Source: Escherichia coli (GTDB taxonomy: Bacteria > Pseudomonadota > Gammaproteobacteria > Enterobacterales > Enterobacteriaceae). From it: 64,000 bases of DNA. Below the pieces are notes generated by a model. That model searched no databases. It was not told the origin of the DNA and worked only from the letters and a program-made list of their open reading frames with translations. Positions 11,539 through 22,648 of the stretch are shown one piece after another. The translations under genes and the position numbers were made by a program. Each line of letters begins with the position of its first letter. Position 1 is the stretch's first letter. The stretch lies in assembly GCF_003991155.1 (NCBI RefSeq), contig NZ_CP031293.1; one strand, 5' to 3'.

Positions 11539-12189
11539 ATGAAAACTCAATTGATGGGAGAGCGCATTCGCGCTCGGAGAAAAGAACTCAAGATCAGGCA
11601 GGCCGCACTTGGAAAGATGGTCGGCGTGTCTAATGTTGCCATATCTCAGTGGGAACGCTCTGAGACAGAGCCAAATGGAGAGAATCTTCTCGCCCTGGCT
11701 AATGCGTTGAAGTGTTCCCCTGACTATCTGATGAAAGGAGAGGAAAGTCTTTCAAACATTGCCTATCACAGTAGGCATGATCCAAGAGGGTCATACCCTC
11801 TGATTAGCTGGGTGAGCGCAGGATGCTGGATGGAAGCTGTAGAACCATATCATAAGCGTGCAATAGATAACTGGTACGATACAACCGTAGACTGTTCAGA
11901 AGATTCGTTTTGGTTGGATGTGAAGGGAGACTCAATGACGGCTCCGGCCGGTCTCAGTATCCCTGAAGGAATGATAATACTCGTCGATCCTGAAGTAGAG
12001 CCGCGTAACGGGAAACTGGTAGTTGCAAAGCTCGAAGGAGAAAACGAGGCAACTTTCAAGAAGTTAGTTATTGATGCAGGCAGGAAGTTTCTAAAACCAC
12101 TTAACCCACAATATCCGATGATCGAGATCAACGGAAACTGCAAAATCATCGGCGTAGTTGTCGATGCAAAACTAGCAAACCTTCCATAA
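11539..12189 (+). CDS. cI: CI repressor (HTH + S24 LexA-like peptidase domain)
   Basis: N-terminal HTH (VGVSNVAISQWERSE), C-terminal S24 motifs (GDSM, K in VVAKLEGE). Confidence 0.9.
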   Translation: MKTQLMGERIRARRKELKIRQAALGKMVGVSNVAISQWERSETEPNGENLLALANALKCSPDYLMKGEESLSNIAYHSRHDPRGSYPLISWVSAGCWMEAVEPYHKRAIDNWYDTTVDCSEDSFWLDVKGDSMTAPAGLSIPEGMIILVDPEVEPRNGKLVVAKLEGENEATFKKLVIDAGRKFLKPLNPQYPMIEINGNCKIIGVVVDAKLANLP

Positions 12190-12280: not shown

Positions 12281-12309
12281 TTGACCATTAATTAAAGAGA
12301 TCTTAAATT
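12281..12309 (+). promoter_or_regulatory. PL promoter with flanking OL operator half-sites
   Basis: TTGACC-17 nt-TAAATT; flanking palindromes CTTAAATTTAAG and TTAAGT repeats. Confidence 0.5.
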
Positions 12310-12795: not shown

Positions 12796-13095
12796 ATGAC
12801 AGTAGTCATTACATATCTAGCTGACGATAACGCCAGAAATCGCCGCAGAGCACGCAGGCAGGCTCAACGTGAACAGGCAATGCAAGAACAGCGACTGGCG
12901 CGAAAGATTGCGCTAAAGCTCTCTGGTTGCGTCAGAGCAGACAAAGCAGCATCACTCGGAAGCCTTCGCTGCAAGAAGGCAGAAGAAGTCGAGAGTAAAC
13001 AGAACCGTATTTACTACCGCAAGCCACGCAGTGAAATGGGTGTGACTTGTGTTGGTCGCCAGAAAATGAAATTAGGCAGCAAACCACTTATTTGA
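12796..13095 (+). CDS. N: Antitermination protein N
   Basis: Arg-rich motif NARNRRRARRQAQ; C-terminus RIYYRKPRSEMGVTCVGRQKMKLGSKPLI resembles lambda N. Confidence 0.8.
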   Translation: MTVVITYLADDNARNRRRARRQAQREQAMQEQRLARKIALKLSGCVRADKAASLGSLRCKKAEEVESKQNRIYYRKPRSEMGVTCVGRQKMKLGSKPLI

Positions 13096-13730: not shown

Positions 13731-13864
13731 TCGGCCTTTATTTTTGGCACTAACAACAGAATAAACACTGCACTGTGTATTCATTCCAACGAGTGAATAC
13801 ACGGAGCAATGTCGCTCTTAACTAAACAGGAGCCGACTTGTTCTGATTATTGGAAATCTTCTTT

Positions 13865-13891
13865 GCCCTCCAGTGTGAGGGCGATTTTTTT
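13865..13891 (+). terminator. tL-like intrinsic terminator
   Basis: GCCCTC-CAGTGT-GAGGGC followed by GATTTTTTT, 12 nt upstream of next start codon. Confidence 0.5.
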
Positions 13892-13903
13892 GATGGAGGA
13901 TAT

Positions 13904-14872
13904 ATGAGTGAAGTAACAGATTTAGTTGTTATTGAAAAAGCAAATGCAATGACTGTATTTCAGTCTGCCGACCAGATTGAAGAAATCCTTCAAAGGGTTG
14001 AACGTGAAGTTATGTCCTTTGTGCCTGATATCACAACGGCAAAGGGCAGAAAGGAGATCGCTTCTCTGGCGTATAAAGTTGCGCAGACGAAAACATATCT
14101 CGATGGTCTTGGCAAAGACCTTGTTGCTGAACTGAAGGAAATTCCAAAGCTAATTGATGCCAACCGCAAGACAGTGCGCGATCGCCTTGATGAGCTGAAA
14201 GCCAAGGCACGCCAGCCTCTTACTGATTATGAGGAAGAACAGGCGCGGATTAAAGCCGAAGAAGAAGCTAAGGCAGCAGCTGAAGCTCTCGCAAAGCAAA
14301 TTGAGTCTGACCATGAAATAGCTATTTTGATGGATCGCGAATTTGACCGCCAAAGAGAAGAGGCAAGACTCAAAGCGGAGCAGGAAAAGCGAGAGCATGA
14401 AGAACGCTTAAAAAGAGAAGCTGAAGAGAAAGCCAGAGCAGAAGCCGAAGCAAAGGCAAAAGCCGAAATTGAAGCAGCAGCAAGGCGAGAAGCAGAAGCT
14501 AAGGCCGCAGCGGAACGTGCAGAGCGTGAACGCATTGAAGCCGAGCAACGAGCACAGCGCGAAGCAAAAGAGGCAGCAGAACGAGCTGAAAGAGAAAAGC
14601 AGGCGGCAATTGAAGCAGAACGCCGAAAAGCACAGGAGGAGGCTGAACGAATCCGGCGCGAGGCTGAAGCAAAAGAGCAAGCCAGAATAGCAGAAGAAAA
14701 AAGAATCAAGGACGAAGAAGAGCGTAGAGCAAAGGATAAAGCTCACCGGAAAGAAGTAAATAACAAAATACTTGCTGACCTTATCAAGGTTGGCGCATCA
14801 GAAGATGTTGCTAAAAATATCATAACAGCCATCGTAAAAGGCGAAGTATTCGCAACAAAAATAACCTACTAA
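13904..14872 (+). CDS. Hypothetical protein with long charged E/R/K/A-rich single alpha-helix segment
   Basis: N-terminal about 110 aa domain, about 170 aa low-complexity AEAK/ERAE repeats, short C-terminal domain; GGAGG RBS. Confidence 0.5.
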   Translation: MSEVTDLVVIEKANAMTVFQSADQIEEILQRVEREVMSFVPDITTAKGRKEIASLAYKVAQTKTYLDGLGKDLVAELKEIPKLIDANRKTVRDRLDELKAKARQPLTDYEEEQARIKAEEEAKAAAEALAKQIESDHEIAILMDREFDRQREEARLKAEQEKREHEERLKREAEEKARAEAEAKAKAEIEAAARREAEAKAAAERAERERIEAEQRAQREAKEAAERAEREKQAAIEAERRKAQEEAERIRREAEAKEQARIAEEKRIKDEEERRAKDKAHRKEVNNKILADLIKVGASEDVAKNIITAIVKGEVFATKITY

Positions 14873-17741: not shown

Positions 17742-18241
17742 GCACTATCACAAGAGAATGGCTGCAGCAGGCTATCAACGATTATGAAAGCGTTCGTGAT
17801 GAGCTTCCTTTCGGGCTTGATGATTACCAGGGGAATATCCTGGCTGCCCTGCGTATCGCACTGGCATCGCTGGAAGCAGAGCCGGTGGCGTGGAAGGTAA
17901 CATTCACGCAAATTGACCGTGAATATAACACGTTCACTGGTATGTATTCTGACAAAGCAGAAGTCGAACGGTGGGTGCGGCTGCATAAAGCATGTAATTT
18001 TCGGGCAGATATAACACCGCTTTATACCGCCAAGCCAGTGCCGGTAACTCCGGATGGTTGGATAAGCTGTAGTGAGCGAATGCCGAACGACGCGCAGTGG
18101 TGCGTAGTGAACACAGAATACGGGTATTACGTGCAATGCTGGTCTGAAGGTCAAGGGTGGCTTGGTGATGATATCAGCATCCCTGAATGCGATGTAATCA
18201 ATTGGATGCCGCTACCAGAACCACCGCAGGAGATGAAGTAA
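17738..18241 (+). CDS. Hypothetical protein, DUF551-like C-terminus
   Basis: C-terminal WISCSERMP...WMPLPEPP resembles DUF551 as recalled. Confidence 0.45.
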   Translation: MSTITREWLQQAINDYESVRDELPFGLDDYQGNILAALRIALASLEAEPVAWKVTFTQIDREYNTFTGMYSDKAEVERWVRLHKACNFRADITPLYTAKPVPVTPDGWISCSERMPNDAQWCVVNTEYGYYVQCWSEGQGWLGDDISIPECDVINWMPLPEPPQEMK

Positions 18242-18525
18242 TGGACTCCTTCGCGAAATATACGATTATTGACTGGATTGCCTTCCTTCAGGTTTTGCTC
18301 ATCTGGTTTTATATGGCTTACAGGAGTGGACAGTGGATTGTCAGTGTAGCCTGTAGCAGGGGATGGCGTTGGTGGAACCGAAAGAATAAAAAAGCACTGG
18401 CCTTGGATTCGTTTTACGAAGCATTCAATCTTAACAGCCTTCAGCCTGGTTCTGTCATTGTAGTCACCACTCAAAGCGGCATGACGATACAAATTCACAA
18501 GCCAAAGGAGGAAGGTCGTGGCTAA
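18241..18525 (+). CDS. Hypothetical membrane protein
   Basis: Hydrophobic segment IIDWIAFLQVLLIWFYMAY; start chosen at MDSFAKY. Confidence 0.35.
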   Translation: MDSFAKYTIIDWIAFLQVLLIWFYMAYRSGQWIVSVACSRGWRWWNRKNKKALALDSFYEAFNLNSLQPGSVIVVTTQSGMTIQIHKPKEEGRG

Positions 18526-18799
18526 CCTGCAACTTGCCGTCAAAGGTGAATACTTCGACGCCATGATTCGCGGGGAGAAAACGGAAGAGTATCGCCTGTG
18601 CAATGACTACTGGAATAAACGCCTCGTTAATCGTAAGTATGACCGCCTGATTATCACAAAGGGATATCCGAAGCGCGACGATTCCAGCCGCAGAATTGAC
18701 GTCCCGTATGACGGATATGAAATCAAGACAATCACACATCCGCACTTCGGCGATAAACCGGTAACGGTATTCGCGATAAAGGTGAATATCAATTGCTAA
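18518..18799 (+). CDS. Hypothetical protein (ASCH-like?)
   Basis: 93 aa ORF, AGGAGG RBS. Confidence 0.4.
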   Translation: MANLQLAVKGEYFDAMIRGEKTEEYRLCNDYWNKRLVNRKYDRLIITKGYPKRDDSSRRIDVPYDGYEIKTITHPHFGDKPVTVFAIKVNINC

Positions 18800-18912
18800 A
18801 TTAGTAGCATAGCATAAAGATGCTTGCATTAATGAAGTGTGTATAATAATGCCTCATCAATAGTAAACTACTGAAATAGCAAAAAAAATGCATATTAAAG
18901 AGGATTCGAAAA

Positions 18913-19104
18913 TTGAAAATGTTCATGCAAATAGACAGACGCATAGATATTAATGGCAATTCATACTTAGTTAGATGCGAAGAGAGGCCTAACGGTGAGT
19001 GGCGTGTATATGATATTGACCGTAAGATCAATATCAGCACCATGAACAAAGACACTGCCTTTGATGAATGGAAAGCTGAAGCTAAAAAACAACATAATTC
19101 GTAA
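18913..19104 (+). CDS. Hypothetical protein in AT-rich moron-like segment
   Basis: ORF preceded by AT-rich promoter-like sequence and GAGG RBS. Confidence 0.35.
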   Translation: MKMFMQIDRRIDINGNSYLVRCEERPNGEWRVYDIDRKINISTMNKDTAFDEWKAEAKKQHNS

Positions 19105-19184
19105 AATTACAAAAACCCTAACCAATTGATGGATTTCTTTTATCTGAACTCGCTACGGCGAGTTTTGTTTTATGGAGATGATAA

Positions 19185-19352
19185 ATGCACTTCCGAGTCA
19201 CAGGAGAATGGAATGGAGAGCCATTCAACAGAGTTATCGAAGCGGAGAACATCAACGACTGCTACGACCACTGGATGATATGGGCGCAGATAGCACATGC
19301 AGACGTAACCAATATTCGAATTGAAGAACTGAAAGAACACCAAGCCGCCTGA
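19185..19352 (+). CDS. Hypothetical small protein (55 aa)
   Basis: MHFRVTGEWNGEPFNRVIEAENINDCYDHW...; stop lies inside terminator hairpin. Confidence 0.3.
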   Translation: MHFRVTGEWNGEPFNRVIEAENINDCYDHWMIWAQIAHADVTNIRIEELKEHQAA

Positions 19353-19366
19353 TGGCGGTTTTTTGG
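19343..19366 (+). terminator. Intrinsic terminator
   Basis: AGCCGCC-TGAT-GGCGGTT followed by TTTTTTGG. Confidence 0.5.
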
Positions 19367-19375
19367 GGGTAGTAG

Positions 19376-19567
19376 ATGGCTGCAATTCACATTGTATCAA
19401 TAACATGCAATGCAATTCAGATAGTTGCTTGCATTATCTTTGTTTTCTCAATCATTCGCTCCAGACGATATTCTCCAGCAATTAACCGACATCCTGCACA
19501 AGTTGAAGCCGTCAGGATGGCTATAGAGTTACGAAATGAGATGAATAAGGCATTAATGGAGATGTAG
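19376..19567 (+). CDS. Hypothetical small hydrophobic protein (63 aa)
   Basis: IVSITCNAIQIVACIIFVFSII putative TM segment. Confidence 0.3.
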   Translation: MAAIHIVSITCNAIQIVACIIFVFSIIRSRRYSPAINRHPAQVEAVRMAIELRNEMNKALMEM

Positions 19568-19691
19568 AAACCATTCACTGACAAACATTAAGAGTGGAAA
19601 TAAAGAAATCACACCGCCTCACACTCGATGAGGCCTGTTCATATCTGATAGAGCCGCTATATGGCGGTTTCTTTTTGCCTGGAGAATTAAG

Positions 19692-19883
19692 ATGACCGAT
19701 ACCAGCCTGATTCCTGAGAAAGAAGTGATGAACAAGCTCGGTGTTTCATCACGTCAGACAATCTGGAACTATACCAAACGGCACGGATTTCCGAAGCCAG
19801 TCAGAACCCACCCCAAATCATACCTTCGTGAAGCTGTTGAAGGGTGGATTCTTAACGGTGGCGTTAATCAGAAATGCTCCTGA
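19692..19883 (+). CDS. xis: Excisionase / AlpA-family DNA-binding protein
   Basis: 63 aa small HTH protein overlapping the 3' end of int on the opposite strand. Confidence 0.7.
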   Translation: MTDTSLIPEKEVMNKLGVSSRQTIWNYTKRHGFPKPVRTHPKSYLREAVEGWILNGGVNQKCS

Positions 19884-21042
19884 TGTGCCAGAACAATTTA
19901 TCAGCGTGAAGCTCATACGCTTTGCGCTGAGCCTCTATCCAGTCGTGTTTATTGTATACGGACATTATCCCGCCAAGTTCATGACCGAGCATTCGCTCAG
20001 TAACATGAGGCTCGACATTCATCTCGGACAGACGTGTAACAAGCGTTCTTCTGAAATCGTGTGTTCGCCAGTAACCTAGATCCATCCCTCCCCTTATTCT
20101 ATTTACGAATCGGTTGGCTGCAGCGATGCTGATCGGTTTGTTTATGTCTTCTCCAGGGAAAAGAACATCATTGTACGTTGTCATGGCCTTTTCGAGGAAA
20201 GGCTTAATTTGTTCGAAGATTGGACGGCGGATAGCATTACCCATCTTGCTATGCTCTTTCGGTACGGTCCATACGTTTTCCAGCAGGTCAAATTCTGTCT
20301 TTTTTGCCAGCCTAAGCTCTGAGAGCCTCGCCCCCCACAGCATAAGCATCTGATGAAGTAGCTTATTTGACGTAGACGCACGGCTTCTTTCAATAGCAAG
20401 CCAAATCTTAGCCAGTTCGTGATACGACAGTACACGATCCCCTACCTCAGCGCGGGAGCCGAAGTCCCTTGGTTGGATGCTCATAATTGCGCAACTATCT
20501 ATCAACTGACGCCGCATGCACCAACTTATTGCTGATCTTAGTTGACTTAGCACCTGCCTTGCTCGGCGTGGATTATCTCTTTCTTCTTCGGTAAGCAGGT
20601 CAACCCATTGCTTAACCGTGATAGAAGATGCCGGACGATTAGGGAAGGCGTCATGCATGCGCTTCATAACCGTTGATCGGTAAAGTGCCTGGGTCTTTTC
20701 TCTGAGAGTTGTAGAGACGTAGTTGTCGAACCAGTAGTCGAGACACTGGGCGACCGTCATGGAGTTCTCCACCTTCTCTTCAAAATAAGTGCGTGGATCC
20801 GTTCCTGAGAAATAGAGCTTTCGCAAGTCAGCAGTGATCTGTCTGGCATCCTTCAAAGACATGGATGGGTATCGACCAAGCCCAAGTCGATTAGGCTTGC
20901 CATGCCAGCGATAGCGGTACTGGAACTGGATGACCCCCTTCGGTGAAATTCGTACGCTGAGGCCATCGGCATCAGCCACTTCTTGTGGGCCCGAATATGG
21001 TTTACCATAAATAGTACGAAGTTTTGTGTCGCTTATAGCCAT
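19864..21042 (-). CDS. int: Tyrosine integrase
   Basis: 392 aa; C-terminal catalytic region HDFRRT...LGHELGG...YNKH. Confidence 0.9.
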   Translation of the reverse strand: MAISDTKLRTIYGKPYSGPQEVADADGLSVRISPKGVIQFQYRYRWHGKPNRLGLGRYPSMSLKDARQITADLRKLYFSGTDPRTYFEEKVENSMTVAQCLDYWFDNYVSTTLREKTQALYRSTVMKRMHDAFPNRPASSITVKQWVDLLTEEERDNPRRARQVLSQLRSAISWCMRRQLIDSCAIMSIQPRDFGSRAEVGDRVLSYHELAKIWLAIERSRASTSNKLLHQMLMLWGARLSELRLAKKTEFDLLENVWTVPKEHSKMGNAIRRPIFEQIKPFLEKAMTTYNDVLFPGEDINKPISIAAANRFVNRIRGGMDLGYWRTHDFRRTLVTRLSEMNVEPHVTERMLGHELGGIMSVYNKHDWIEAQRKAYELHADKLFWHIRSISD

Positions 21043-21223
21043 AAATAATATTTGGTACGCTCAGAAATAATGGTTTGGTACACATCTGGTACACAATATC
21101 ACATGGACAACAGCGCACAGTAAACAACTATATTTGACGTTCGTAGACATACTCAGGTGAAAAAATGGTTGTTTTTCGAGTTATAACAGACAGTTAATTA
21201 ACTACAGTGGACAATGCTAGACA
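21043..21223. promoter_or_regulatory. Prophage attachment-site region (arm-type repeats; core not resolved)
   Basis: TGGTAC(G/A)C repeats at 21053, 21076, 21087 and GACAATG repeats near 21205-21225, between int and sbcB. Confidence 0.35.
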
Positions 21224-22648
21224 ATGACAGACACAGATAAACAACCTACCTTCCTCTTTCACGATTACGAAACCTTTGGAACGCACCCCGCGTTAGATCG
21301 CCCTGCACAGTTCGCAGCCATTCGCACTGATAACGAATTCAATGTCATCGGCGAACCCGAAGTCTTTTACTGCAAGCCCGCGGATGACTATTTACCCCAG
21401 CCTGGAGCAGTATTAATTACCGGTATTACCCCGCAGGAGGCACGGGCGAAAGGAGAAAACGAAGCCGCGTTTGCCGCCCGTATTCACTCGCTTTTTACCG
21501 TACCGAAGACCTGTATTCTGGGCTACAACAATGTGCGTTTCGACGACGAAGTCACACGCAACGTTTTTTATCGTAATTTCTACGATCCTTACGCCTGGAG
21601 CTGGCAGCATGATAACTCGCGCTGGGATTTACTGGATGTTATGCGTGCCTGTTATGCCCTGCGCCCGGAAGGAATAAACTGGCCTGAAAATGATGACGGT
21701 CTACCGAGCTTTCGCCTTGAGCATTTAACCAAAGCGAATGGTATTGAACATAGCAACGCCCACGATGCGATGGCTGATGTGTACGCCACTATTGCGATGG
21801 CGAAACTGGTAAAAACGCGTCAGCCACGCCTGTTTGATTATCTCTTTACCCATCGTAATAAACACAAACTGATGGCGTTGATTGATGTTCCGCAGATGAA
21901 ACCCCTGGTTCACGTTTCCGGAATGTTTGGGGCATGGCGTGGCAATACCAGCTGGGTGGCACCGCTGGCGTGGCATCCTGAAAATCGCAATGCCGTAATT
22001 ATGGTGGATTTGGCAGGAGACATTTCGCCATTACTGGAGCTGGATAGCGACACATTGCGCGAGCGTTTATATACCGCAAAAGCCGATCTTGGCGATAACG
22101 CCGCCGTTCCGGTTAAGCTGGTGCATATCAATAAATGTCCGGTACTGGCCCAGGCGAATACGCTACGCCCGGAAGATGCCGACCGACTGGGAATTAATCG
22201 TCAGCATTGCCTCGATAACCTAAAAATTCTGCGTGAAAATCCGCAAGTGCGTGAAAAAGTGGTGGCGATATTCGCGGAAGCCGAACCGTTTACGCCTTCA
22301 GATAACGTGGATGCACAGCTTTATAATGGCTTTTTCAGTGACGCCGATCGTGCAGCAATGAAAATTGTGCTGGAAACCGAGCCGCGTAATTTACCGGCAC
22401 TGGATATCACTTTTGTTGATAAACGAATTGAAAAACTGTTGTTCAATTATCGAGCGCGCAACTTCCCGGGGACGCTGGATTATGCCGAGCAGCAACGCTG
22501 GCTTGAGCACCGCCGCCAGGTCTTCACGCCAGAGTTTTTGCAGGGCTACGCTGATGAATTGCAGATGCTGGCACAACAGTATGCCGATGACAAAGAGAAA
22601 GTGGCGCTGTTAAAAGCGCTTTGGCAGTACGCGGAAGAGATTGTCTAA
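21224..22648 (+). CDS. sbcB: Exodeoxyribonuclease I
   Basis: 474 aa, matches E. coli SbcB throughout except first about 9 residues (MTDTDKQP here). Confidence 0.9.
   Translation: MTDTDKQPTFLFHDYETFGTHPALDRPAQFAAIRTDNEFNVIGEPEVFYCKPADDYLPQPGAVLITGITPQEARAKGENEAAFAARIHSLFTVPKTCILGYNNVRFDDEVTRNVFYRNFYDPYAWSWQHDNSRWDLLDVMRACYALRPEGINWPENDDGLPSFRLEHLTKANGIEHSNAHDAMADVYATIAMAKLVKTRQPRLFDYLFTHRNKHKLMALIDVPQMKPLVHVSGMFGAWRGNTSWVAPLAWHPENRNAVIMVDLAGDISPLLELDSDTLRERLYTAKADLGDNAAVPVKLVHINKCPVLAQANTLRPEDADRLGINRQHCLDNLKILRENPQVREKVVAIFAEAEPFTPSDNVDAQLYNGFFSDADRAAMKIVLETEPRNLPALDITFVDKRIEKLLFNYRARNFPGTLDYAEQQRWLEHRRQVFTPEFLQGYADELQMLAQQYADDKEKVALLKALWQYAEEIV

Follow-up and report, generated by a model that had tools for sequence, protein, structure and literature searches.

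The segment between positions 18791 and 19676 of the 64,000-nucleotide stretch of E. coli DNA that we have analysed (contig NZ_CP031293.1, hereafter the window) holds ordinary mosaic prophage cargo rather than a single moron cluster driven by a promoter. Three cassettes make it up, unrelated to one another and each pairing a small gene with a terminator; they have been gained, lost and swapped independently, with the cassette joints falling inside terminator hairpins. The best explanation, and one that we consider probable, is that the segment forms the variable tail, on the xis side, of the accessory exo-xis (ea) region within the pL (leftward early) operon, which lies on the + strand here, and that the three small genes depend on N for their expression.

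The host prophage is P22-like/lambdoid and is integrated beside sbcB. Along the + strand its genes run from the repressor (11539-12189) through an N-like gene, recombination genes, and ea22-like, DUF551 and ASCH genes into the variable region, and end with alpA-int-sbcB. Since an N-like antiterminator gene is present (12796-13095, + strand; phrog_271 'anti-termination protein N-like', E 1e-36; arginine-rich N-terminus), the + strand early operon, with its pL-like promoter at 12281-12309, can be read as an N-dependent pL operon, and all three small ORFs are co-directional within it. [quoted passage not shown] In the window the last widely shared gene ahead of the variable tail encodes an ASCH-domain protein (18518-18799, + strand; phrog_625, E 2e-50), labeled 'ASCH domain-containing protein' by PGAP in related genomes. 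On the other side lies the gene for an AlpA-family excisionase/regulator (19692-19883, + strand; phrog_66 'excisionase and transcriptional regulator', E 1.9e-8), referred to as xis in the first-pass annotation, whose counterparts in HK140 and Sf101 are annotated as AlpA family. A tyrosine integrase gene (19864-21042, - strand) converges on alpA with a 20-nt overlap, and sbcB starts beyond it at 21224.

Three + strand ORFs are indeed found where the first-pass annotation had placed an AT-rich, moron-like cluster: ORF1 (18913-19104, 63 aa, TTG start), ORF2 (19185-19352, 55 aa) and ORF3 (19376-19567, 63 aa). Taking the prophage part of the window as reference (47.4% GC), the AT-rich description fits the first 340 bp (18791-19130, 32.9% GC) and does not carry over to the orf55 module (44.9%) or to the ORF3 module (40.2%); the lower GC content expected of a moron is found for the ORF1 and ORF3 cassettes and not for orf55. 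Nor do the three genes form a single cluster. Across related loci ORF1, ORF2 and ORF3 are present or absent in all combinations, with breakpoints that recur at 18790/91, 19121/31, 19177-87, 19301-05, 19364, 19642/46 and 19652, and their frequencies among 5426 E. coli genomes differ widely, at 29 for ORF1, 2179 for orf55 and 68 for ORF3. Comparison with relatives that lack parts of the segment establishes that the ORF1 and ORF3 cassettes are separate inserts, the former being absent from HK022 and E. coli C4 and the latter from HK140.

The second gene, ORF2, is lambda orf55 (lambdap35), matching phrog_676 over residues 1-55 of 55 with an E value of 6.6e-40 and sharing 99.1% nucleotide identity with the lambda-like phage HK630; the corresponding HK140 gp31 record carries the note 'similar to lambdap35'. 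It occupies a cassette (19131-19364) in which it is bracketed by two intrinsic terminators, and it lies on the pL strand, toward the xis end of the exo-xis region. [quoted passage not shown] Unlike lambda, the phage here is P22-like and has, in place of lambda xis-int, an excisionase of the AlpA type and an integrase that converges on it, and its orf55 has an additional cassette on either side, those of ORF1 and ORF3, both absent from lambda. Across 34 loci the changes in ORF2 amount to 16 synonymous and 18 non-synonymous, with no real indels, and near-complete copies occur in 40% of the E. coli genomes. The first-pass annotation had named conservation of the segment as a known gene as an outcome that would speak against its reading; this is what we find for ORF2, that is, for part of the segment. 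Lambda orf55 has been described (PMC8614690, PMC3824215), and its product has been modelled in the literature, speculatively, as a T7 Gp2-like RNA polymerase binder; our Pfam, NCBIfam and PADLOC searches with ORF2 returned nothing.

ORF1 lies in a mosaic insert (18791-19130) whose left joint falls within the final 3 codons of the ASCH gene and whose right joint falls within an HK022-type tL4 hairpin, breakpoints (18790/18791 and 19121/19131) that recur among the 63 related loci. In HK022 and E. coli C4 the ASCH gene runs straight into tL4/orf55, so that the insert separates genes that are adjacent in relatives; among phages, it is found in 1 of 50,697 records. The reading frame begins with a TTG codon 8 nt past AAGAGGA and matches phrog_16329, a family of unknown function, over residues 1-63 of 63 (E 8.5e-49). 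Homologues at 66-67%, 48-49% and 35-36% identity, HK639_31 being among the divergent ones, are of equal length and keep the MxxFxQIDR N-terminus. Values of pN are 0.19-0.39 as compared with a (saturated) pS of ∼0.8, and there are 3.6 variable sites per 100 nt in the coding part versus 16.4 upstream. Judged by this pattern of conservation ORF1 genuinely encodes a protein, one whose family is rare. The RefSeq pipeline never calls it in E. coli. Three candidate relationships were discarded: a single exact-word hit to a Prevotellaceae MAG among 100,044 species-representative genomes proved to be a chance 20-mer in an unrelated gene; the Salmonella sequence P0007, at 72%, is a contig-edge fragment beside dinI with just the 3' two-thirds of the gene; and the GEW...DxW pattern present in both ORF1 and ORF2 might have marked them as diverged paralogues, but BLASTP gives no alignment.

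The predicted fold of ORF1 consists of four beta strands and a C-terminal helix (AF2 pLDDT 85.9, from a single sequence). Pfam, NCBIfam and PADLOC profile searches gave no match, and Foldseek searches with the model found no significant match in PDB or BFVD; in AFDB50 the sole match is the Salmonella ORF1 orthologue, together with sub-threshold HicB-like resemblances. The model superposes on several N-terminal domains of HicB-like antitoxins with query-normalised TM-scores of 0.67-0.72, whereas E values are 0.14-0.5, identities 10-19%, there is no Pfam match and no HicA is nearby, the neighbours being the ASCH gene and orf55. The predicted likeness to HicB is a lead and not a case of membership. 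More generally, PADLOC-DB defence and exclusion profiles matched none of ORF1-3 at E values up to 1, and PDB sequence searches gave nothing meaningful.

Each of the three ORFs is followed by a hairpin, T1 after ORF1, T2 after ORF2 and T3 after ORF3, and the region has an excess of terminator-like sites, 6 being observed versus 1.5 ± 1.3 in shuffles. T1 (19146-19171, + strand) is an intrinsic terminator with an 8-bp stem followed by UUUUGUUUU, a folding energy of -11.9 kcal/mol and a z score of -3.86, and it is invariant in HK022, HK140, TST3 and the window. T2 (19343-19364, + strand; -15.1 kcal/mol) is the hairpin and U-tract that the first-pass annotation had correctly noted after the second ORF, and the homologous site in HK140 is annotated as a rho-independent terminator. 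It overlaps the stop and the last two codons of orf55. A 22-nt direct repeat, D1, has T2 as its left copy and, as its right copy, T3 (19651-19676, + strand), a weak terminator-like hairpin (-10.5 kcal/mol, z only -1.25) just upstream of the alpA ribosome-binding site. T1 and T3 do not appear in the first-pass annotation. Immediately ahead of T1 are the 3' half and T-tract of HK022 tL4 (19131-19145, + strand), the 5' arm having been replaced by the ORF1 cassette. The 'tL4 terminator' of the HK022 record X51962 corresponds to positions 271-299 of locus L002, and its hairpin energy of -15.6 kcal/mol in HK022 compares with -3.0 kcal/mol (z -0.4) for the window equivalent, in which the hairpin is lost. 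HK140 has a single T2/T3 hybrid hairpin fused directly to alpA, and other phages carry fragments with T1 alone or T2 alone. The pL-operon terminators of HK022, which N- or put-modified RNA polymerase reads through, have counterparts here: the window retains the 3' half of tL4 and an N homologue, and shares conserved T1 and T2 hairpins with HK022, HK140 and lambda-like phages. It differs in that tL4 is disrupted by the ORF1 insertion and in that a third hairpin, T3, duplicates T2.

The moron reading would have at least one of these genes transcribed independently of pL. Morons of lambdoid phages such as HK97 and HK022, which Juhala and co-workers are said to have described in 2000, are reportedly promoter-gene-terminator inserts. 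Like these, the ORF1 and ORF3 cassettes each insert a single gene, have a GC content lower than that of their surroundings and are followed by a terminator. On this account at least one ORF, realistically ORF1, would be an autonomous unit active in the repressed prophage and of help to the lysogen, for example through exclusion or fitness. The ORF1 insert between otherwise adjacent neighbours and its 33% GC as against 47% for the prophage are as one would expect, and an intrinsic terminator lies 3' of the gene in all four members of the ORF1 family, including those of HK639 and of loci L060 and L061, although that following ORF1 in the window belongs to the neighbouring orf55 module. What is missing is the feature that defines a moron, its promoter. 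The promoter-like sequence reported upstream of ORF1 comes down to a lone, perfect TATAAT (18842-18847, + strand) in the 113-nt AT-rich spacer, for which the TTGCAT at 18824 lies at the wrong spacing (12 nt), leaving it with no usable -35. In a consensus scan no sigma-70 site precedes ORF1, and the region as a whole has 2 sites versus 4.5 in shuffles, i.e. fewer. The best position-weight score upstream of ORF1, 8.1 bits, is at the 99.75th percentile, a level reached by chance at ∼2-3 sites per kb per strand, while pL and pR of the prophage score 11.9 and 11.4 bits in the same scan. The hexamer is not conserved, 8 of 29 related copies having A in place of its first T; no part of the cassette varies more than the spacer, which also has indels; and in L060 there is no spacer at all, the ORF1 homologue and its upstream neighbour overlapping (ATGA). 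The HK639 homologue does have a 9/12 promoter-like site upstream. An 11-nt repeat, TGCTTGCATTA, at 18821 and 19426 is probably a chance occurrence. For the other two genes, ∼13 nt separate the U-tract of T1 from the orf55 start codon and 11 nt that of T2 from the start codon of ORF3, leaving no room for a promoter before ORF2 or ORF3, and ORF2 is in any case a conserved gene of the lambda pL operon. From these sequence comparisons we infer that a promoter of its own is not credible for any of the three ORFs, weak or non-sigma-70 promoters being possible. The moron layout is therefore borne out for ORF1 alone, and there as far as insertion, foreign GC content and terminator go; without a credible promoter, and with the cassettes lying within an antiterminated early operon and oriented along it, we regard an autonomous moron as unlikely.

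The ORF3 cassette (19365-19650) has near-identical terminator hairpins on both sides. That it is an insert is evident from HK140, in which alpA follows immediately on the orf55 terminator, and at one locus (L013) a different small hydrophobic ORF fills the slot. ORF3 belongs to a 71-aa family of unknown function, phrog_15342 (E 1.7e-43, positions 1-63 of the 71-position profile), that is found also in phages IME10 and Sf101; in the window a G-to-T change at 19565 creates a TAG codon, so that the allele has 63 aa instead of 71. The strongly hydrophobic segment of the first-pass annotation corresponds to a predicted N-terminal transmembrane helix (residues 3-31, pLDDT 80-95 along the helix), followed by an RSRRY motif and a predicted cytoplasmic amphipathic helix, and ORF3 is, by this model, a probable small single-pass inner-membrane protein. 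NCBIfam and PADLOC searches gave nothing, the lone Pfam match, Reticulon (E 0.034), is attributed to chance, and an exact-word scan of the 100,044 species-representative genomes gave 0 matches.

Such an architecture invites comparison with type I toxins of the Hok kind, which are similarly short, with one hydrophobic helix and then basic residues, and ORF3 might be a small membrane toxin or exclusion peptide, perhaps type I toxin-antitoxin-like, with an antisense RNA that starts from a minus-strand site, masks the start of ORF3 and ends at the reverse of T2. The site in question, CTGAAT-18-TACAAT (-35 at 19420, -10 at 19396), is the best in the region at 9.4 bits, and the occupation of the same slot by another small hydrophobic ORF would fit. 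However, chance would yield a site of 9.4 bits roughly once per kb, and the -10 is altered in 3 loci. The minus strand at ORF3 has no U-tract and no stable RNA structure, structured RNA in ORF3 finds no backing in z scores of +0.68 (sense) and -0.48 (putative antisense), and an Rfam search of 18000-21300 on both strands, at E up to 1, gave nothing. The toxin mRNA would be left with no promoter because T2 ends 11 nt before the ATG, and a 71-aa protein with a 40-residue soluble, helical cytoplasmic tail is longer than typical type I toxins, to which it shows no sequence or profile match. We consider this account very improbable. Somewhat less remote, if still quite improbable, is that ORF3 has no function here and is an open frame in recombination debris between terminator copies. 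Consistent with this, the 9 synonymous and 16 non-synonymous changes show no significant synonymous excess and are indistinguishable from neutral; homologues all have at least 94% identity, near-identical copies standing alone among 5.8 billion proteins; PGAP/RefSeq leaves ORF3 uncalled; and beside the premature stop of the window allele lies a demonstrable gene fragment, the 5' part of an HTH (xis-like) ORF (19594-19646, + strand; MEIKKSHRLTLDEAC..., with a hairpin GCCTCA-N7-TGAGGC), that moves together with ORF3. Against it, the frame reaches the equivalent of 19591, with 71 codons, in 28 of 29 complete related copies comprising 12 protein alleles, and the one indel, a 6-nt insertion in L042 that together with loss of the stop gives 77 aa, is in-frame. 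Substitutions in the transmembrane segment stay hydrophobic (V/I, T/I, A/V, I/L), the start has a good Shine-Dalgarno sequence and an ATG, and ORF3 has 15 variable sites per 100 nt as compared with 28 in the downstream fragment. The window allele may nonetheless be decaying, given its nonsense mutation. The slimmest likelihood of all we assign to the proposals that ORF3 is a type I toxin-antitoxin-like effector held between terminator copies by the excision genes, or that ORF1 is a new HicB-like-fold inhibitor of a host toxin or defence protein.

We return, then, to a variable pL-operon tail. With no credible promoter of their own, ORF1-3 would be transcribed only by N-modified RNA polymerase from pL reading through T1-T3, most likely after infection or induction and together with alpA/xis, and not in the repressed lysogen, where the tandem terminators would shield alpA from stray transcription. 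ORF1, Orf55 and ORF3 would be dispensable early accessory factors; ORF1 would most likely be a small factor that binds and modulates a protein of the host or the phage, and ORF3 most likely as a membrane-anchored effector made at induction.

The results suggest that nothing here points to a new kind of system, and their main value is one of annotation. ORF2 is identified as lambda orf55, ORF1 is, by its selective constraint, a genuine gene that the RefSeq pipeline leaves uncalled in E. coli, and ORF3, uncalled too, is flagged as probably encoding a small membrane protein. The region also shows neatly, at one locus, how terminator hairpins act as cassette-exchange joints at the end of a pL operon. 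Were ORF1 or ORF3 to have a phenotype in the lysogen, it would be added to the small prophage-encoded modulators.

The window begins within a P22-like/lambdoid prophage whose minus strand carries, in order, the terminase and lysis genes, Q, the nin region, the replication genes, cII and cro. On the plus strand lie the repressor gene (11539-12189) and the gene for an N-like antiterminator (12796-13095; phrog_271, E 1e-36), the latter followed by kil, recombinase, SSB, ea22-like, DUF551 and ASCH genes and then by the region studied here, directly after which come an AlpA-family excisionase gene (alpA, 19692-19883, +), the convergent integrase gene (19864-21042, minus strand) and sbcB. The gene order around the repressor, the N-like gene and alpA/int thus puts three small ORFs in the distal part of a pL-type operon that depends on N, at its end, which is the exo-xis position of lambda. 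The 3' ends of alpA and the integrase gene overlap by 20 nt (19864-19883), as they do in HK140, Sf101 and the E. coli C4 prophage, so that each gene, when transcribed, gives RNA antisense to the other's 3' end. The pL operon also contains a 340-aa ORF (13850-14872), extremely E/K/A/R-rich and with predicted coiled-coil character, that is named 'cell envelope biogenesis protein TolA' or 'coiled-coil domain-containing protein' in related genomes.

A first-pass annotation had described 18800-19570 as one AT-rich, moron-like cluster of three small ORFs with a promoter-like sequence and a terminator. The ORFs are indeed found at the coordinates it gave on the + strand of 18800-19700, ORF1 at 18913-19104 (63 aa, TTG start), ORF2 at 19185-19352 (55 aa) and ORF3 at 19376-19567 (63 aa in the window), each preceded at 8-9 nt by a plausible Shine-Dalgarno sequence. 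The terminator after ORF2 also holds up: T2 (19343-19364, +) is a hairpin followed by U6, at -15.1 kcal/mol, whose HK140 homologue is annotated as a rho-independent terminator. Two terminator-like elements had been missed, T1 (19146-19171, +) between ORF1 and ORF2, an 8-bp stem followed by UUUUGUUUU (-11.9 kcal/mol, z -3.9), and T3 (19651-19676, +) directly 5' of alpA (-10.5 kcal/mol, z only -1.25). Terminator-like sites are enriched in the region (6 vs 1.5 +/- 1.3 in shuffles), and promoter-like sites show no enrichment (2 vs 4.5 +/- 2.6). The low GC content is real but concentrated in 18791-19130 (32.9%) rather than uniform, with 44.9% at 19131-19364 and 40.2% at 19365-19650, against 47.4% for the prophage part of the window. 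The promoter-like sequence noted for ORF1 (TTGCAT, a 12-nt spacer, TATAAT) is not supported by its score. In a position-weight scan the best arrangement upstream of ORF1 scores 8.1 bits, the 99.75th percentile of all window positions and a level reached by chance at a few sites per kb; well above it, the prophage pL reaches 11.9 bits and the prophage pR 11.4. The first T of TATAAT is changed to A in 8 of 29 related copies, and the 122 nt 5' of ORF1 are the most variable portion of its cassette (indels, and 16.4 variable positions per 100 nt versus 3.6 in the ORF1 interior).

Nor is the region a single cluster. Set against 63 related loci, drawn from IMG/VR, phage records and E. coli genomes, it falls into cassettes carrying ORF1 (18791-19130), ORF2, which is orf55 (19131-19364), and ORF3 (19365-19650), with recurrent breakpoints at 18790/91, 19121/31, 19177-87, 19301-05, 19364, 19642/46 and 19652. 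Among 5426 complete E. coli genomes the ORF1 segment occurs in 29, the orf55 segment in 2179 (at least 80% coverage) and the ORF3 segment in 68. Across the related loci the segments are found in every combination: ORF1 and orf55 without ORF3, orf55 and ORF3 without ORF1, ORF3 with just the last 50 nt of orf55 (Sf101), and all three together (the related locus L027, TST3 and the window). At 19131, the right-hand joint of the ORF1 cassette lies inside a hairpin annotated "tL4 terminator" in HK022 record X51962; the stem is complete in HK022 (-15.6 kcal/mol), and the window retains only its 3' half and T-tract, which no longer form the hairpin (-3.0 kcal/mol, z -0.4). The ORF3 cassette lies between the two copies of a 22-nt direct repeat, AGCCGCCTGATGGCGGTTTTTT / AGCCGCTATATGGCGGTTTCTT, corresponding to T2 / T3, and HK140 has a single hairpin fused directly to alpA, a hybrid whose loop resembles T2 and whose tail resembles T3, the product that would be expected from recombination between the T2 and T3 copies. 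T1-only and T2-only fragments are found separately in other Escherichia and Salmonella phages.

Two further features of these cassettes were seen. At Salmonella and IMG/VR loci (L004 1-700, L010, L012, L014, L019, L020, L024, L030 and L032) the ORF1 cassette runs, at the position matching 19121, into dinI, which is an SOS-regulated moron adjoining ORF1 given the perfect LexA box TACTGTGTTTATATACAGT upstream of it. An 11-nt exact repeat, TGCTTGCATTA, occurs upstream of ORF1 (18821-18831) and inside ORF3 (19426-19436), with 19 nt matching at 84% identity; it is probably a coincidence, since chance alone would give ∼0.2 such matches in the stretch.

Sequence comparison establishes ORF1 as a genuine but rare gene. 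It matches phrog_16329 (E 8.5e-49), only 13 clusters among 5.8 billion proteins match the family profile, and HMMER, run exhaustively over 1.84 billion representatives, added only two divergent members (48-49% and 35-36% identity). A homologue of 66-67% identity lies inside HK639_31 of phage HK639, again directly before a xis-like gene and int. All homologues are 60-63 aa long and share the N-terminus MxxFxQIDR, which supports the TTG start at 18913, and between them pS is saturated (∼0.8) with pN of 0.19-0.39, so that the frame is under selection at the protein level. None of the 29 E. coli genomes carrying the segment has a RefSeq annotation over ORF1. A single-sequence AlphaFold2 model (mean pLDDT 85.9) has four beta strands and a C-terminal helix; Foldseek returned no significant match in PDB or BFVD and a sole significant match in AFDB50, the Salmonella orthologue. 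Sub-threshold AFDB50 matches are repeatedly to HicB-like antitoxin domains (query-normalised TM-scores 0.67-0.72, E-values 0.14-0.5), a resemblance of the predicted fold that we treat as a lead only. An exact 20-mer of ORF1, GGTGAGTGGCGTGTATATGA, at 11169-11188 of L064, a Prevotellaceae MAG, lies within an unrelated gene and is not a homologue; ∼0.5 such matches are expected in 298 Gb, so it is put down to chance.

ORF2 is, from its sequence, lambda orf55, with a full-length match to phrog_676 (E 6.6e-40), DNA 99.1% identical to lambda-like phage HK630 and an HK140 orthologue that carries the note "similar to lambdap35". Over 34 loci its variable sites favour third positions and divide into 16 synonymous and 18 non-synonymous; there is a sole indel, in the 1989 HK022 record. 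The pattern is consistent with purifying selection. Since T1 ends ∼13 nt before the start codon and T2 overlaps the stop, there is no space for an orf55 promoter. The gene is among seven lambda exo-xis ORFs (PMC3824215) and outside the set covered by the lambda CRISPRi essentiality screen (PMC10695390). Its modeled structure, three strands and one helix, is T7 Gp2-like, and RNA polymerase binding has been suggested, speculatively by the authors' own description (PMC8614690).

ORF3 is probably a small membrane protein, cut short in the window. Its profile, phrog_15342, is 71 positions long and 28 of 29 related copies read to the stop encode 71 aa (12 protein alleles), the exception, at locus L042, having gained 6 nt in frame and lost its stop codon to reach 77 aa; the 63-aa form is confined to the window allele, where G-to-T at 19565 creates TAG. 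The hydrophobic segment noted earlier is borne out as a predicted TM helix (residues 3-31), followed by RSRRY, a short loop and an amphipathic helix (40-69), and the positive-inside rule would put the tail in the cytoplasm. The only homologues found are at least 94% identical, and ORF3 has no annotation in phage records IME10 and Sf101 or in RefSeq. In every copy examined the start codon lies 11 nt past the T2 U-tract, so transcription must come through T2. ORF3 is always accompanied by a fragment, ∼50 nt long, of the 5' part of an HTH xis-like ORF (19594-19646), past which there are three different junctions, each into an excision-gene module and two with a terminator hairpin. This conserved fragment (MEIKKSHRLTLDEAC...) contains the hairpin GCCTCA-N7-TGAGGC; a ∼36-nt piece of it recurs at 100% identity in many E. 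coli genomes, O157 Stx prophages among them, and also lies upstream of xis in HK022. At L013, an IMG/VR locus, a 46-aa hydrophobic ORF (phrog_19252) takes the place of orf55 and ORF3 3' of the T1 equivalent, directly 5' of an HTH xis-like gene, which suggests that small membrane peptides have repeatedly come to occupy the slot just ahead of the excision genes.

The region thus has a cassette structure, terminators at T1-T3, no recognizable promoters and the same orientation as the pL operon that encodes the N homologue. We consider it likely that ORF1-3 are delayed-early accessory genes, made only when N-modified polymerase passes T1-T3 en route to alpA; in the lysogen the same terminators would shield alpA from stray transcription. 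The three proteins would be dispensable modulators, Orf55 possibly directed at RNA polymerase as in the published model, ORF1 a small binding module and ORF3 a membrane-anchored factor.

The alternatives, not all mutually exclusive, concern ORF1 and ORF3. Its AT-rich cassette might make ORF1 a true moron expressed in the lysogen, and an intrinsic terminator does lie 20-45 nt 3' of the family gene in 4 of 4 contexts; at locus L060 the homologue overlaps the preceding gene (ATGA), making a promoter of its own impossible there, and we regard this reading as unlikely. ORF3, shortened in the window, could be non-functional debris, which we think rather less probable. Its sequence gives weak evidence of selection: there are 9 synonymous and 16 non-synonymous variable sites, but the TM substitutions do remain hydrophobic, and variability is lower than in the downstream fragment (15 versus 28 variable sites per 100 nt). 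That ORF3 is a toxin or type I-like unit seems to us very improbable. Delayed-early expression from pL remains our preferred reading.

The region is a new instance of something well described, the variable tail that lambdoid phages carry in the exo-xis region, with mosaic exchange of cassettes where genes meet. ORF2 was known before, and PHROG already lists ORF1 and ORF3 as families, although genome pipelines miss them. Of modest use, possibly, are the observations that ORF1 is demonstrably selected, yet never annotated in E. coli RefSeq genomes, and that every cassette joint sits in a terminator hairpin.
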